Origin: a bacterium
Lineage (GTDB): Bacteria; Zhuqueibacterota; Zhuqueibacteria; Residuimicrobiales; Krinioviventaceae
Assembly (NCBI GenBank): GCA_963674595.2
Contig: CAXXFV010000001.1
Span: 1 to 64,000 of the forward strand
Direction: 5' to 3'
Length of the DNA stretch: 64,000 nucleotides
Position numbers and translations under genes: made by a program
Notes under the pieces: model-generated
Told to the model about the DNA's origin: nothing
What the model saw: the letters and a program-made list of their open reading frames with translations, nothing else
The model's database searches: none
In this document: positions 34,582-39,837 of the stretch, one piece after another
How the letters are laid out: each line of letters begins with the position of its first letter
How positions within the stretch are numbered: position 1 is the stretch's first letter

Positions 34582-35610
34582 ATGAAAAAATTATTTGTTA
34601 CAGTATTTGTTCTTTTATTCAGTGTTATACTGTTTGCCGATGAAAAAACAATGATAAATAAATATGATGATGATCTTGTCTGTGTTGAAAAAAGCGACAA
34701 GGCCTGGCTTGGTGTACAGGTGAGGGACCTGGACCGTGAATATAAAAAGGAGACTGAGACCAAAGCAAATTACGGGGCCGTGATTGATCATATCCTGGAT
34801 GATACTCCCGCAGATGAAGCCGGTCTTAAACCCGGGGACGTTATTGTTAAACTTAATAATGAAAAGATTACAGATTCCAATGATGTTATAGAGGTTATTG
34901 AACAATTAAAACCCGGAGATATGATAGAATGCAGAGTGATAAGGGGCAAAGATTCAATTACCAAAGTTATTAAACTTGCGGCAAGGCCCCGACATAAAAT
35001 TCGTATTTTTAATGATAATATTAAAGATTTTTATTTTGGTACCGGTTTTATGGGTATGAAAGTACAGGAACTGGATGATAATTTGGCATCGTATTTTAAT
35101 GTTTCTGCTGATGCGGGTTTGCTGGTCACACATATTGAACCCGGAGAAGCGGCAGATAAGGCTGGTCTGCATTCCGGTGATATTTTGACAAAAATTAATA
35201 ATAAAAAAATTGAAAATAAGAAAATATTTTCTAAATTGTTAAAAGACCTGAAAAAGGGTGATAGTGTTGATATTGAGTTTATTCGGACGGGTAAACACAT
35301 GAATGCAACAATCACACTGGAGGATGAACCATCGTTTTTATTAAATGATTTTAATTTGGATACGAGTTTTTATCCCCGATGGAGAAATCGTTTTCAGGAA
35401 CGTTTTTTTGATGATATGAAAAGTTACCATAAAAATTATCAAAAATACCGTGATTTTTATGATCAGGAGTTTCGTGAAAAGTTGGATAAAGAAATAGAAA
35501 ACAAACTTTTTCAAAAAGAATTGGATATGGATAAACTGAAAATTGAAATGGAACAATTAAAATCCGATGTTAAAAATTTAAAAGAAAGAATCAAAAAGTA
35601 TGAACAATGA
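34582..35610 (+). CDS. Exported tandem-PDZ protein with C-terminal coiled coil, no protease domain
   Basis: Signal peptide; two PDZ domains (WLGV...PADEAGLKPGDVI; FMGM...AADKAGLHSGDIL). Confidence 0.8.
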   Translation: MKKLFVTVFVLLFSVILFADEKTMINKYDDDLVCVEKSDKAWLGVQVRDLDREYKKETETKANYGAVIDHILDDTPADEAGLKPGDVIVKLNNEKITDSNDVIEVIEQLKPGDMIECRVIRGKDSITKVIKLAARPRHKIRIFNDNIKDFYFGTGFMGMKVQELDDNLASYFNVSADAGLLVTHIEPGEAADKAGLHSGDILTKINNKKIENKKIFSKLLKDLKKGDSVDIEFIRTGKHMNATITLEDEPSFLLNDFNLDTSFYPRWRNRFQERFFDDMKSYHKNYQKYRDFYDQEFREKLDKEIENKLFQKELDMDKLKIEMEQLKSDVKNLKERIKKYEQ

Positions 35611-36664
35611 AAATGAACGAGTAACCGGTTCCCCTTTACCAAAAGAACAAGTAATCAAAGCAATTGAAAAAAAGAATCCGAAACGAATCCCCATGGTGTT
35701 TGCAAAATGGTGGGGAGAAGGATTGGTGGATCAATATGGCGATGCTCTTGCAGAGTTTGAAAAATACCCAAATGATGTTGAGATGCTGATGATTCGAAAT
35801 CCGGTAGACCCTGAACGTATGTCATTATCCTGGAATTGGAAAACCAGTAAAGCCAGAGATTCTGCCTGTATAATTGATAATTGGGACAAGCTGGATGAAT
35901 TTATTGAAAAGATTCCCCAGCCTGATAATGATGACCAATTCGAAGCGTCTTTGCATATTGCCCAAAAGGCACACGCTGATGGCCGGTACTTGTTATTCGG
36001 CTGGTGGCATCTTTTTTTCGAACAGCCCTGGATGCTGAGGGGGATGGAAAACCTGATGTGTGATTATTATGCCTATCCGGACATGATTCATCGTTTTCAC
36101 CAGGCCATGTGTGATACCTATGAAAAGTATTTATTAAAAGCTGTTGAGATGTTTCAACCGGACGGGTTTTGGACAAGTGATGATCTTGGTCATCAAACCG
36201 GCCCGATGATGAGCCCGGATATTTTTCATGAATTTTTATTTCCCTACTATAATAAAATCGGTACTTTTTTAAAAAAGAACAATATCCATTTTTGGTTACA
36301 TAGTTGTGGTGATAACACTTTATTAATGCCTGATTTAATACATGCCGGTGTTTCTATTTTTCACCCGGTACAAAAGGGCACAATGGATGCTAAAGAAACG
36401 GTTGAAAAATTTGGCGACCAGATAAGCTTTCTTGCCGGATTCGATGTGCAGCACGCGCTTCAGGAACTTGATCCCGATGCCGTGCGTGAAGAAGTGAAAA
36501 GGTTGATCGATCTGTTCGATAAACAGGAAGGCGGAATGTGTATTGCCGCCGGCAACGGTATTGTTGCCGGTACACCCATTGATAACATTCGGGCTTTTTT
36601 GGATGAAGCTTTTAAATACGGTGCAACACATCGAAACCAATTGTCTGCACAAAATCCCGCTTGA
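35600..36664 (+). CDS. Uroporphyrinogen decarboxylase/MtaA-CmuA family protein
   Basis: LRGMENLM, SDDLG...MMSP, LHSCG, GFDVQ, TPIDNI. Confidence 0.8.
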   Translation: MNNENERVTGSPLPKEQVIKAIEKKNPKRIPMVFAKWWGEGLVDQYGDALAEFEKYPNDVEMLMIRNPVDPERMSLSWNWKTSKARDSACIIDNWDKLDEFIEKIPQPDNDDQFEASLHIAQKAHADGRYLLFGWWHLFFEQPWMLRGMENLMCDYYAYPDMIHRFHQAMCDTYEKYLLKAVEMFQPDGFWTSDDLGHQTGPMMSPDIFHEFLFPYYNKIGTFLKKNNIHFWLHSCGDNTLLMPDLIHAGVSIFHPVQKGTMDAKETVEKFGDQISFLAGFDVQHALQELDPDAVREEVKRLIDLFDKQEGGMCIAAGNGIVAGTPIDNIRAFLDEAFKYGATHRNQLSAQNPA

Positions 36665-36689
36665 CTTTTGGCAAAAATTTTTGTACTTT
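36661..36689 (+). promoter_or_regulatory. Sigma70-type promoter for the Met leader/homocysteine operon
   Basis: TTGACT-N17-TACTTT ending 31 nt upstream of the leader ATG. Confidence 0.6.
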
Positions 36690-36720
36690 TTCAAAAATTT
36701 AACAAACAAAAAGAATTAAT

Positions 36721-36807
36721 ATGGTATACTTGCATAAAAAATATATGTATATGATGATGTTTTATTTTATGAGAAAAAGCGGGCTTGCCGCAGGTTTACC
36801 TGATTAA
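36721..36807 (+). CDS. Methionine-rich leader peptide, 28 aa (MVYLHKKYMYMMMFYFMRKSGLAAGLPD)
   Basis: 6 ATG codons including ATG-TAT-ATG-ATG-ATG at 36745-36759; lies between the promoter and a terminator preceding a homocysteine biosynthesis operon. Confidence 0.78.
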   Translation: MVYLHKKYMYMMMFYFMRKSGLAAGLPD

Positions 36808-36866
36808 TCAATATACATAAAAGGAACTTGCAAAGGCCCATAGAAAAATCTGTGGGCTTTTTTTTT
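36781..36866 (+). promoter_or_regulatory. Attenuator with mutually exclusive antiterminator (36781-36839) and terminator (36834-36866)
   Basis: Terminator GCCCATAGA-AAAA-TCTGTGGGC plus T9. Antiterminator GGGCTT (36781-86) pairs with AGGCCC (36834-39), and GCAGGTTT (36790-97) with GAACTTGC (36824-31). Confidence 0.75.
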
Positions 36867-36869
36867 ATT

Positions 36870-37604
36870 ATGTCTAAAAGATGGACACGACATTCGGTTG
36901 AAATTAAGGAATCCATTTTAACTGTTTTATGCCATAAACAATATTTTAAGATAGTACTTGATGCTGTTGAATTTAGCCGTAATGTTTTAGAGAATTATAT
37001 TAAGGCCCATTCAGAATTTGCTCGTTCTTTTGAGCCGGTTTTTTGTAACGATAATGATCCGGAAATAATAAAAAATATGTGCCGGGCTGCACAACACGCC
37101 GGTGTGGGTCCTATGGCTTCTGTTGCCGGTGCGGTCGCAAAAACTGTTTTGGATTTTTTACTTGAAGCAGGCGCGGATGAAGCTGTTGTTGATAACGGCG
37201 GAGACATTGTCCTCAAAGTAAACGAACCTGTTAAAATTGGTGTTTTTGCAGGAAAGTCCGGATTGAATAATCTGGCATTTGTTATTCCGCCAGGCGATAA
37301 TAGTTTGGCTTTATGCACATCATCCGGCACTGTCGGGCATTCTTTTAGTTACGGCAAAGCGGATGCGGCTATAGTCTTTTCAAACGATGCTTTTGTGGCT
37401 GATGCTTCGGCAACAGCGTTGGGAAACAGAATAAAAAGTATCGACGATCTGGAACGTTCGTTTGAAATATTTGAAAATAAAGATGATATTAATGGTGCAA
37501 TTGCGATTTTAGGTGATCAGATTGCATTATGGGGTGATTTACCCGAAATAATAAAAGCAAATGTTGATACGGAATTGATAACAAAAGGAAGAATATATGC
37601 GTAA
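36870..37604 (+). CDS. UPF0280/ApbE-like protein (COG2122, MA1715-like)
   Basis: GVGPMASVAGAVA, VVDNGGDI, CTSSGTVGHSFSYGKADA, ADASATALGN; ATG 36870 preferred because the track's TTG start overlaps the attenuator. Confidence 0.87.
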   Translation: MSKRWTRHSVEIKESILTVLCHKQYFKIVLDAVEFSRNVLENYIKAHSEFARSFEPVFCNDNDPEIIKNMCRAAQHAGVGPMASVAGAVAKTVLDFLLEAGADEAVVDNGGDIVLKVNEPVKIGVFAGKSGLNNLAFVIPPGDNSLALCTSSGTVGHSFSYGKADAAIVFSNDAFVADASATALGNRIKSIDDLERSFEIFENKDDINGAIAILGDQIALWGDLPEIIKANVDTELITKGRIYA

Positions 37605-38655
37605 AATTAGATGTGCTGTTTTAGGAGCAACCGGCGTTGTCGGACAGCATTTTTTAAAATTATTGGTTGATCATCCATATTTTGAACTTGTGGCAATTTG
37701 CGCCAGTGATGCCCGTGCAGGACAAAAACTACATACAGCACGGGAACATGTTCCGGGCGGTTTGCCGAAATCTTTTTCACACCTGGAATTTGATCCGATT
37801 GATGTGGCAATATTAAAAAATAAAAAAGTTGACATTGTTTTTTCTGCATTACCGGCAGATGTTGCACAAACGATTGAAAAAGAAGCTGCAAAAAACGGTA
37901 TTAACGTTTTTTCAAATGCAAGCGCTTATCGTATGGACAGTCAGGTGCCTATTCTTATCCCGGAAGTTAACCATGAACATATCGATTTGATTAAAGCACA
38001 GAAGAAAGAAACTCCCGGATTTATTATAACCAATGCCAACTGTACAACAACGGGCCTGGCCATGGCCCTGGCGCCGATTCAACCATTGGGTATTAAAAAG
38101 CTGATTATGGCAAGTTACCAGGCCATTTCCGGTGCCGGTTACCCGGGTTTGCCGACTATGGATATATTAACAAATGTTATTCCTTACATCGGCGGTGAGG
38201 AACCCAAAGTTTTAGCAGAATGTGCAAAAATCTTTGGAAAATGTGATTCGGATGTTATTAAAGACGCTGATTGGGAAATTCATGCCCATTGTGTTCGGGT
38301 GCAAACCATTGTCGGACATTTGATTTCCGTTCATCTTGAACTGGAAAAAGAAGTAAAATATGAAGAGGTATTAAACCTTATAAAATCATACAAAGCCCCT
38401 GAAAAGGTAGCCGGGCTTCCAACGGCGCCGGTTGAACCTGTTCTTTATACAGATGTTCCAACACGTCCGCAGCCAATGCTGGATGTTAATGCCGGAGATC
38501 CGCAACGGGCAGCAGGTATGGCCGTAACAATCGGGCGGCTTGAGGTAAAAGGAAATATAGTACGATTTTTAACCTTGTCAAATAATCTGGTTCGCGGAGC
38601 AGCAGGTGGTTCCATTCTAAATGCTGAATTGGCTTATCAGGAAAAATTAATTTGA
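37597..38655 (+). CDS. asd: Aspartate-semialdehyde dehydrogenase (archaeal/fungal-like type)
   Basis: VLGATGVVGQ, FSNASAYRM, PEVN, TNANCTT, YQAISGAG, NLVRGAAG. Confidence 0.93.
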   Translation: MRKIRCAVLGATGVVGQHFLKLLVDHPYFELVAICASDARAGQKLHTAREHVPGGLPKSFSHLEFDPIDVAILKNKKVDIVFSALPADVAQTIEKEAAKNGINVFSNASAYRMDSQVPILIPEVNHEHIDLIKAQKKETPGFIITNANCTTTGLAMALAPIQPLGIKKLIMASYQAISGAGYPGLPTMDILTNVIPYIGGEEPKVLAECAKIFGKCDSDVIKDADWEIHAHCVRVQTIVGHLISVHLELEKEVKYEEVLNLIKSYKAPEKVAGLPTAPVEPVLYTDVPTRPQPMLDVNAGDPQRAAGMAVTIGRLEVKGNIVRFLTLSNNLVRGAAGGSILNAELAYQEKLI

Positions 38656-38688: not shown

Positions 38689-39837
38689 ATGGCAAAAACA
38701 TTTGAAGAGATAAACGAAAAAATTAAAAAGCGGAAAGCTGTGGTTTTAACGGCTGAAGAAATGACCTCACTTGTTTCGGAAAAAGGTGCGGCCAAAGCAG
38801 CAGATCAGGTTGATGTGGTAACAACCGGGACCTTTGGCCCCATGTGTTCTTCGGGTGTTTTTATAAATTTTGGGCATAGTAATCCTCGTATTCGGGCCAC
38901 AAAAGTCTGGCTGAATGGTGTTGAAGCCTATAGCGGCATTGCTGCTGTTGATTGTTATTTGGGCGCCACACAGCTTCAGGATGACGAGTTTCAAAATATG
39001 GAGCAGAAAACCGGATTTTATGGCGGCGCTCATGTTATTCATGAACTGCTTTCCGGCAACAAGGTTCAGCTTGTTGCCACCAGTCCGGGTACGGATTGTT
39101 ATCCTAATAAAAAGGTCGTTAAGGATATTAATTTAGAACAGTGCCCTGATGCGATTTTGGTGAACATGAGAAACTCTTACCAAAATTATAATGTTGCAGT
39201 TAATTTTTCTAAAAAGAAAATATACACCTATATGGGGGTATTAAAACCGGAACTGGGCAATGCCACCTATTGCAGTGCCGGACAAATGAGTCCGTTATTA
39301 AATGATCCAAGGTTCCTTACAATCGGTATCGGCACCAGAATATTTCTCGGCGGCGGCATCGGTTACATTATCGGACCGGGGACCCAGCATAGACCATCGG
39401 TTCAGGCTGCTGAACTTGGATTCCCTGTGCATTCAGGAGGAACGCTTGCAGTTTCCGGAAATTTAAAACAGATGCAGGCAAAGTGGATCCGGGCCGCAAA
39501 TTTTCCCGGTTATGGTGTCAGTATGCGTGTTGGCGTTGGTGTTCCGATCCCTATTTTAAATGAAGAAATGGCCGGCTTTACGGCCGTTGGTGATGACAAG
39601 CTTGTTGCACCGGTTGTTGATTATGCGAATGACTATCCTGTTGGTTCGACCCGCATTCTTGATAAAGTCTCTTATGCGCAACTTAAAACAGGATTTATTG
39701 ATATTGATGGAAAAAAAATTCCGACCAGTCCGCTTTCATCTTATAAAAAGGCGATTGAAATCGCCTCCGAATTGAAAACGTGGATACAAAAGGGTGAGTT
39801 TTTGCTTTCAAAACCTTCGGAAACTTTACCTCAATAA
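38689..39837 (+). CDS. Homocysteine biosynthesis protein / L-aspartate semialdehyde sulfurtransferase (DUF39, MA1821/MJ0100-like), without CBS domains
   Basis: KTFEEINEKI...VLTAEE, VDVVTTGTFGPMCSSG, TDCYP, RNSYQNY, YTYMG, GIGTRIFLGG, GTQH. Confidence 0.9.
   Translation: MAKTFEEINEKIKKRKAVVLTAEEMTSLVSEKGAAKAADQVDVVTTGTFGPMCSSGVFINFGHSNPRIRATKVWLNGVEAYSGIAAVDCYLGATQLQDDEFQNMEQKTGFYGGAHVIHELLSGNKVQLVATSPGTDCYPNKKVVKDINLEQCPDAILVNMRNSYQNYNVAVNFSKKKIYTYMGVLKPELGNATYCSAGQMSPLLNDPRFLTIGIGTRIFLGGGIGYIIGPGTQHRPSVQAAELGFPVHSGGTLAVSGNLKQMQAKWIRAANFPGYGVSMRVGVGVPIPILNEEMAGFTAVGDDKLVAPVVDYANDYPVGSTRILDKVSYAQLKTGFIDIDGKKIPTSPLSSYKKAIEIASELKTWIQKGEFLLSKPSETLPQ

Follow-up and report, generated by a model that had tools for sequence, protein, structure and literature searches.

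The genomic stretch analyzed here (the window) comprises 64,000 nucleotides (nt) from a bacterium of the phylum Zhuqueibacterota (assembly GCA_963674595.2, contig CAXXFV010000001.1, positions 1 to 64,000 of the forward strand). In this study, we examined a candidate leader-peptide attenuator that lies in it directly upstream of a homocysteine-synthesis operon. A spacer of 205 nt separates an MtaA/URO-D-like gene from three tightly packed operon genes, which encode a UPF0280/COG2122-type protein, an aspartate-semialdehyde dehydrogenase (asd) and a DUF39/HcyBio enzyme (Table 1). A first-pass annotation of the sequence had taken these genes to make homocysteine, and the family matches agree with it; the first structural gene had no match in a Pfam search. 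Following the pathway description given by Price et al. (PMC5764234), the COG2122-asd-DUF39 operon produces homocysteine, the precursor of methionine (Met), from aspartate semialdehyde and sulfide, and because of this function it feeds Met synthesis.

The spacer harbors a short open reading frame (ORF) of 28 codons between a promoter-like element, TTGACT-N17-TACTTT, and an intrinsic terminator. Five internal Met codons are present (starting at 36745, 36751, 36754, 36757 and 36769), four of them within the motif M-Y-M-M-M, and all six ATGs between promoter and terminator lie in the frame of this ORF. The encoded peptide is also rich in tyrosine and phenylalanine (four Y, two F). The ORF with its five internal Met codons was found where the first-pass annotation had placed it. 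The terminator that it had described 3 nt before the first ATG was likewise recovered by a terminator scan, with a stem of 13 pairs, a hairpin energy of -17 to -18 kcal/mol on its own and a T-run that ends at 36866, ahead of the structural ATG at 36870. The proposed promoter stood in part: the sequence is present at 36661-89, but a scan for the Escherichia coli-type sigma-70 consensus did not list it, and its second hexamer matches this consensus at three of six positions. It is supported by the occurrence of the same form in a related genome (G022, see below) and before the histidine (His) and tryptophan (Trp) leaders of the same genome.

The rarity of such a Met run was assessed in 742,140 nt of the genome taken as intergenic, which contain 8,964 ATG-started short ORFs of 8 to 51 codons. 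Three of these, including the window leader, have at least four Met residues within six residues after the initiator. Of the other two, one is read from the strand antisense to the His codons of the His leader; the second is followed by an unannotated ORF of 124 amino acids (aa) and has neither a T-run nor a terminator-like hairpin in the 400 nt after it. Only the window leader passed the scan for terminators before genes and precedes Met-pathway genes. The antisense case (G000:C1:68108-68137, minus strand), in which CAT/CAC repeats read MMIVVMMMM, is a trap for Met-run scans in general. Among four near-identical strain assemblies, each consisting of one low-depth contig at this place, the 205-nt leader region has no variant site compared to 7 in 296 nt of flanking coding DNA (one-sided Fisher test, p = 0.024), a weak hint that the leader varies less than the coding DNA around it.

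Folding of the leader RNA (36695-36875) gave a z score of -3.2, better than 199 of 200 shuffled sequences. To represent the state at which the polymerase decides, the transcript was truncated just before the 3' arm of the terminator. In its minimum-energy fold, positions 36781-86 and 36790-96 are paired with 36824-39, and 36781-86 occupies 6 of the 12 nt of the terminator 5' arm. This is the pairing of 36781-97 with 36824-39 that had been proposed from inspection of the sequence. The antiterminator duplex (36779-99 with 36822-41) has an energy of -21.1 kcal/mol (z = -2.7 against shuffles), its first strand begins 20 nt after the M-Y-M-M-M run, and the fold of the truncated transcript is unchanged if the Met-codon region is masked as by a stalled ribosome. 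A mask corresponding to a ribosome at the stop codon (36790-36820) covers the inner half of the antiterminator. Thus, constrained and truncated folds together reproduce the proposed switch.

Table 1. Features of the Met leader and its operon, and of other leaders and elements discussed in the text
Feature	Position	Strand	Basis or context
PDZ-domain gene	34582-35610	+	
MtaA/URO-D-like gene	35600-36664	+	
Promoter-like element, TTGACT-N17-TACTTT	36661-36689	+	Read from the sequence; putative function
Leader ORF, 28 codons, MVYLHKKYMYMMMFYFMRKSGLAAGLPD	36721-36807	+	Between promoter-like element and operon
Regulatory Met codons	36745-36771 (36745-47, 36751-59, 36769-71)	+	Equivalents in G022, L084, L085
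Possible protector helix (1:2)	36742-36758 (Met-codon region) with 36808-36824 (after stop codon)	+	Weak; putative
Antiterminator 5' strand, CGGGCTTGCCGCAGGTTT, inside leader ORF	36780-36797	+	Truncated-transcript fold
Antiterminator 3' strand, overlapping terminator 5' arm	36823-36839	+	Truncated-transcript fold
Intrinsic terminator (stem-loop 36832-36861, T9 36858-36866)	36832-36866	+	Terminator scan, folds
UPF0280/COG2122-type protein, first structural gene, 244 aa	36870-37604	+	NCBIfam NF003324, 285 bits (cut-off 275)
Aspartate-semialdehyde dehydrogenase (asd)	37597-38655	+	Family searches
DUF39/HcyBio homocysteine-synthesis enzyme	38689-39837	+	Pfam PF01837, E = 7.7e-147
His leader peptide, MLHHHHHHYHHNTAMVGG	G000:C1:68105-68161		About 4 kb beyond the window end, same contig; followed by terminator and 298-aa gene
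Trp leader, ..NWNLWWGWWR..	G000:C3:362911-363015		With terminator; precedes 459-aa gene
Trp leader, ..QNWWWR..	G000:C16:292285-292365		Two tandem terminator-like hairpins; precedes 498-aa gene
MMAMMMW(R/C)TDR.. leader type			Thermotogota; precedes aspartate kinase
VMAMIMC..APGG.PG leader type			Thermotogota; precedes gene of about 190 aa and metH-like gene (by eye rather than by family search)
NMMIMCG.. leader type			Thermotogota; precedes gene of 383-386 aa
Conserved element before HcyBio	L146:1355-1414, L148:1365-1400, L150:875-950, L161:1365-1417		Other class of the phylum

Furthermore, we analyzed whether the leader exists before homologous operons. Few related genomes carry the operon: a search for HcyBio gave 2 of 41 relatives, 2 of 125 genomes at the class level and 26 of 167 at the phylum level. 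The one other holder in the class, G022, belongs to the same order and a different family. In this genome, the leader follows directly behind the PDZ gene and consists of TTGACA-N17-TACATT, a 24-codon ORF, MKKYMQNKMMPKRSILRGFAQSVP (MKKYMQNKMM...), and a terminator, GCCCACAA...TTGTGGGC with T9. A UPF0280 homologue (52% identity) and then the start of HcyBio follow, the operon lying on two contig ends; one copy (L002) is cut at the contig end. In addition, the metagenome lineage L084 and the near-identical pair L085/L086, with UPF0280 proteins of 44 to 45% identity, have a TTGACA-type promoter, an ORF ending in ..NIMGMQK(S/T)CG...GFL and a terminator with 4 nt between its T-run and the UPF0280 start.

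These leaders contain different numbers of internal Met codons (5 in the window, 3 in G022 and 2 each in L084 and L085), which lie in a corresponding position ahead of the antiterminator strand. In all four distinct leaders, every ATG before the stop codon is in frame, and the antiterminator duplex scores better than shuffles, with z ranging from -2.7 to -4.1. The antiterminator block G(C/T)GGG(C/T/A)(T/C)TG is kept in all of them, and the 3' arm of the terminator, GTGGGCTTTTTTT, is invariant. Upper pairs of the terminator appear compensatory, being A-T in the window and G022 versus G-C in L084 and L085; they were read by eye, and MAFFT set the terminator arms of window and G022 one column out of register. 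Examination of the orthologous leaders, which had been put forward as a check of the attenuator, therefore gave a Met-containing upstream ORF, an antiterminator and a terminator in G022, L084 and L085/L086.

A broader scan covered 89 loci (865,305 nt) from genome and metagenome collections under a lenient rule, namely at least two Met in five residues of a short ORF that lies ahead of the first operon gene and has a terminator no more than 70 nt away. The operon strand gave 15 matches and the opposite strand 11, which is background apart from L082, L084 and L085/L086. L082 is a Thermotogae metagenome-assembled genome, one of 80 fetched HcyBio genome loci, and has a consensus promoter, a Shine-Dalgarno site, the ORF MRSLALFLKNSTDMMMRWKAPGSCPPVCRL and a terminator. 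Its operon encodes aspartate kinase, an HcyBio-ferredoxin protein, an ApbE-like/COG2122-type protein and MTHFR. HcyBio is present in 3 of 16 genomes of its order, and all three carry an MMM leader, with peptides that differ elsewhere (..NSMMMRWKAPGCCPPRCHL, (M)NSMMMCGDARDFRAG).

In the Thermotogota as a whole, HcyBio occurs in 64 of 151 genomes, and upstream DNA was examined for 62 of them. Met-run leaders were found in 32 of the 62 genomes by the lenient rule and in 23 by a strict rule of at least three Met in five residues, with runs such as MMM, MMAMMMW... and VMAMIMC... (examples are ..NMMAMMMWRTDRPVCP, ..CMMNTMMMRMMGRRRPFERRC, ..VMAMIMCIYAPGGSPGF and MNLINLITIEELNMMMCNTPPG). A strand control over 185,012 nt yielded 32 lenient and 20 strict matches on the operon strand compared to 2 and 0 on the opposite strand. 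Met was the residue most often enriched (20 matches), followed by lysine (12) and leucine (10). For the analysis of pairing, 33 leaders were used: 28 of 29 fetched Thermotogota leaders (the doubtful L233 was omitted), three earlier ones, the window leader and that of G022. In 31 of these 33, pairing of the segment after the Met run with the terminator 5' arm is stronger than in shuffled sequences (z < -2, median -4.5), and the pairing strand begins 0 to 21 nt after the Met run, inside the ORF. Extended upstream DNA of 18 Thermotogota loci revealed leaders in 8 of 16 and short leaderless spacers in the other 8, the remaining two being contig ends. No Rfam family was found in 20 Thermotogota upstream stretches. 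Since the Thermotogota and window leaders share no sequence, the Met-run design seems to have arisen more than once. Met-codon attenuation would then not be confined to the window, and the Thermotogota family probably constitutes the larger result. Within L194-L286, at least three leader types were distinguished, each with a different operon head (Table 1).

The anatomy of the leader, its alternative pairings, their conservation and their recurrence elsewhere led us to conclude that the operon is most likely controlled by a ribosome-mediated transcription attenuator with a leader peptide keyed to Met (AUG) codons. Transcription would begin some 25 nt upstream of the leader ATG, with a ribosome following the polymerase and translating the 28-codon leader. 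If charged elongator Met-tRNA is scarce, the ribosome would stall within 36745-36771, leaving 36780-36797 free to pair with 36823-36839; the antiterminator would then take the 5' arm of the terminator, and the polymerase would read into the operon. With plentiful Met-tRNA, the ribosome would run to the stop codon (36805-07), on and between the antiterminator strands, the terminator (36832-36866) would form, and transcription would end 3 nt before the first gene. Leader translation, the transcription start, termination at 36860-66 and the methionine response are predictions from sequence in this model. Stalling of the ribosome at the Met codons had already been suggested by the first-pass annotation, and the pairings, the orthologous leaders, the recurrence in Thermotogota and the lack of S-adenosylmethionine (SAM) riboswitch and T-box elements (see below) all support it, with the response to methionine as its predicted part.

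Several points weigh against this interpretation. In equilibrium folds of the full-length leader, the terminator wins in every masked state, and the truncated transcript forms the antiterminator even without any ribosome. The choice must therefore be kinetic, as it likewise is in known attenuators. As the truncated RNA takes up the antiterminator fold without translation, read-through may be the default of an untranslated leader, a departure from the trp model. With only the mask for a ribosome at the stop codon, five to six outer antiterminator pairs can still form; on steric grounds, a ribosome inside the antiterminator loop would be expected to prevent closure. A protector (1:2) hairpin is weakly predicted, with a duplex energy of -10.1 kcal/mol. 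It also appears in a sub-threshold Rfam alignment (see below), and a comparable pairing of the Met-codon region with the segment after the stop codon was seen by eye in G022. The ribosome-binding site of the leader (AAAGAA) is weak, and a shortage of methionine also lowers the charging of the initiator tRNA, which could reduce leader translation. Furthermore, Met-richness is not universal in the lineage, L084 and L085 having only two internal Met codons (M-G-M), and for L085 the start codon may be GTG, TTG or the ATG that opens M-G-M. Among the Thermotogota, 30 of 62 genomes gave no match in the Met-run scan, and in the window's genome no such leader was found at metH, a short metE-like gene, metK or the three Cys/Met pyridoxal phosphate enzymes.

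An Rfam 15 scan of positions 35000-38500 returned eight matches with E values up to 10; neither a SAM family nor a T-box was among them, and no family reached its threshold. SAM-I (RF00162) had no match in the whole genome, which is 97.6% complete, and other SAM classes were scanned within 35000-38500. The SAM and T-box elements whose exclusion had been called for are thus not present there. The Rfam trpB motif RF04312, a hairpin followed by a terminator, aligned at 36742-36869 and was rejected with 28.2 bits against a gathering score of 59. We regard this match as terminator-driven noise, because 12 other places in the genome score similarly (24.8 to 32.8 bits).

An unrecognized riboswitch or protein-binding RNA, in which a ligand (e.g., SAM) or a protein chooses between terminator and antiterminator and the short ORF is incidental, is the alternative that survives best, and we consider it unlikely. 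The terminator/antiterminator switch would serve such a device too, the same operon is riboswitch-controlled in other phyla, and the block ATTATGGGCATGCAGAAA is kept at the nucleotide level between L084 and L085. However, apart from the lack of an Rfam family at threshold, room for an aptamer exists only in the A/U-rich ORF, within the roughly 60 nt that precede the antiterminator strand. Between the lineages, the only common sequence is the Met codons, yet each retains an open frame with in-frame ATGs, and in Thermotogota the first 13 codons differ between the leaders G043 and G055, with the frame intact and free of stop codons.

The riboswitch control in other phyla concerns the same position. 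SAM-I lies directly before HcyBio in 5 of 16 loci, all five of them from records of Bacteroidota or Bacteroidales. It does so too in 5 of 11 loci from Bacillota, where two further SAM-I matches lie elsewhere in the loci. Both sets together thus have SAM-I before HcyBio in 10 of 27 loci, which places the operon under methionine/SAM feedback in these phyla. What appears to occupy this position in the lineage of the window and in Thermotogota is a Met-codon leader, and, at part of the loci of other phyla, a SAM-I riboswitch. The SAM-I (S-box) element resembles the window leader in its position, its operon and its action through transcription termination, but it senses SAM directly via an aptamer of about 108 nt, to which the window leader has no such match. 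One metagenome contig with the HcyBio operon also has a c-di-GMP-I riboswitch (L088:42-125, minus strand, 76.6 bits), which is unrelated.

Even less probable is that a translated leader couples transcription to translation in a manner not specific for methionine, as a general sensor of translation rate or a nascent-peptide arrest element. Such a role could be read from the four Y and two F of the window peptide and from the W(R/C)TDR tail conserved in Thermotogota peptides. Met is, on the other hand, the sole residue common to all leaders, the conserved tails fall on the antiterminator strand, a constraint at the RNA level, and all regulated operons are Met-pathway operons. A chance origin of the ORF in an A/T-rich spacer, with a hairpin that simply terminates the MtaA/URO-D-like gene upstream, is very improbable and already disfavoured by the comparisons: this gene ends at 36664 without another terminator before 36832, and short ORFs are abundant (132 of at least 20 aa in 9 kb), but in G022 the same leader and terminator follow another gene, the Met density is reached by only 3 of 8,964 short ORFs, the antiterminator is conserved and the design recurs in Thermotogota with 32 operon-strand matches versus 2 opposite.

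Other leaders in this genome are in keeping with a ribosome-mediated attenuator. A genome-wide scan for terminators within 120 nt before a long ORF gave 130 sites, and the short ORFs preceding them were ranked by single-residue density. At the top were one His leader, two Trp leaders and the window Met leader (Table 1). By eye rather than by family search, the gene after the His leader looks like hisG, and those after the Trp leaders look, also by eye, like trpB (459 aa) and trpE (498 aa). The promoter of the His leader is TTGATT-N17-TACATT, and all four leaders have the common form TTGA(C/T)(A/T)-N17-TA(C/T)(A/T)TT. The organism thus appears to use leader-peptide attenuation, with clear His and Trp examples of the same layout as the Met leader. 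Two further candidates were rejected, both at a gene end: an 'Ile/Thr' short ORF at C4:410953 before a membrane protein resembling, by eye, a TrkH-type transporter, and an 'Arg' short ORF at C21 before a protein judged by eye to be ClpB-like.

Control of methionine genes is taught as the domain of MetJ/MetR, SAM riboswitches and T-boxes. The window leader resembles trpL, hisL, leuL, thrL, pheL and ilvL of Proteobacteria in having a short ORF with codons for the end product and an antiterminator that excludes an intrinsic terminator, and the position of the ribosome would decide between the two structures as it does in these classical attenuators. The likeness to the trp, his, leu and thr systems noted in the first-pass annotation holds in each component, i.e., the ORF, the end-product codons, the terminator and an antiterminator downstream of the regulatory codons. 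Unlike in the classical attenuators, the regulatory codon AUG is also the start codon, with up to six in-frame potential starts, no clear 1:2 protector hairpin is predicted, and the T-run ends 3 nt before the structural start. The mechanism itself is known; what would be new among leader-peptide attenuators is the specificity for Met.

As to precedents, Vitreschak and colleagues reportedly predicted in 2004 that the thrA attenuator of Pasteurellales is methionine-responsive too, which, if so, would be a partial precedent. A Met leader-peptide attenuator was found neither in Rfam nor in the literature searched, apart from a weak mention for Streptomyces lividans, in keeping with the earlier statement that no textbook case is known; earlier predictions may exist. 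In the parts available to us, a survey from 2013 (PMC3766115) names His, Leu, Thr and Trp attenuators (from Rfam) as well as Ile/Val and Phe and does not list Met, and Naville and Gautheret (2010; PMC2965389) describe T-box, riboswitch and leader-peptide switches on the same genes with no Met case. The S. lividans 'metL' is a short ORF before metNIQ that is said to be methionine-dependent (PMC8079986). As far as it is described there, it differs from the window leader in having two internal Met in 29 residues (..CMCRRMCAF), a transporter operon and an unrelated sequence, and its authors note that a typical Rho-independent terminator is missing. In mycobacteria, polycysteine leaderless short ORFs have been presented as cysteine-responsive attenuators (bioRxiv 10.1101/834739); according to this account, they are likewise codon-run leader ORFs for a sulfur amino acid and differ in the amino acid and in their leaderless transcripts.

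Taken more broadly, we regard it as likely, though a step less certain than attenuation at the window operon, that methionine has a classical leader-peptide attenuator of its own. AUG-run leaders would have arisen independently in at least two phyla, that of the window's lineage and the Thermotogota. They would precede about half of the Thermotogota DUF39-pathway Met operons examined, hold the position of the SAM riboswitch of Bacillota and Bacteroidota, and sense charged Met-tRNA, not SAM, by means of a regulatory codon that doubles as the start codon. If true, cells can monitor methionine via tRNA charging rather than via SAM. This raises the question of how the leader avoids misfiring, as an AUG run offers start sites and a methionine shortage hits initiation. 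The Thermotogota family (32 of 62 genomes, some of them complete single contigs) and the window's lineage offer many natural variants for direct tests, and Met-run leaders give annotators a rule for naming these short ORFs.

In the window, the PDZ gene is separated from the leader by the gene of the MtaA/URO-D-like methyltransferase. This gene looks inserted here or lost in G022, because in that genome the PDZ gene adjoins the leader. Between the end of the T-run and the structural ATG lie 3 nt in the window (36858-36872) and 4 nt in L084 and L085; the window lacks a Shine-Dalgarno site in this stretch, at the start of the first structural gene. If the terminator hairpin re-forms, it could influence the initiation of translation at this gene as well.

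In the other class of the phylum, 20 loci gave no Rfam match at the gathering score, and no Met-run leader was found in the intergenic stretches inspected, many operon starts lying beyond the 1.5-kb flank. Four of these loci (Table 1) share a conserved element, GGAGGTG(A/G)TG(A/G)(A/G)CAATG(T/G)TATG..., located 90 to 120 nt before HcyBio. Translated as a short ORF, it reads (M)(M/V)(N/D/G)N(V/G)M(D/E/Y).., has a small internal G+C hairpin and no Rfam match, and may represent another kind of Met-related leader.

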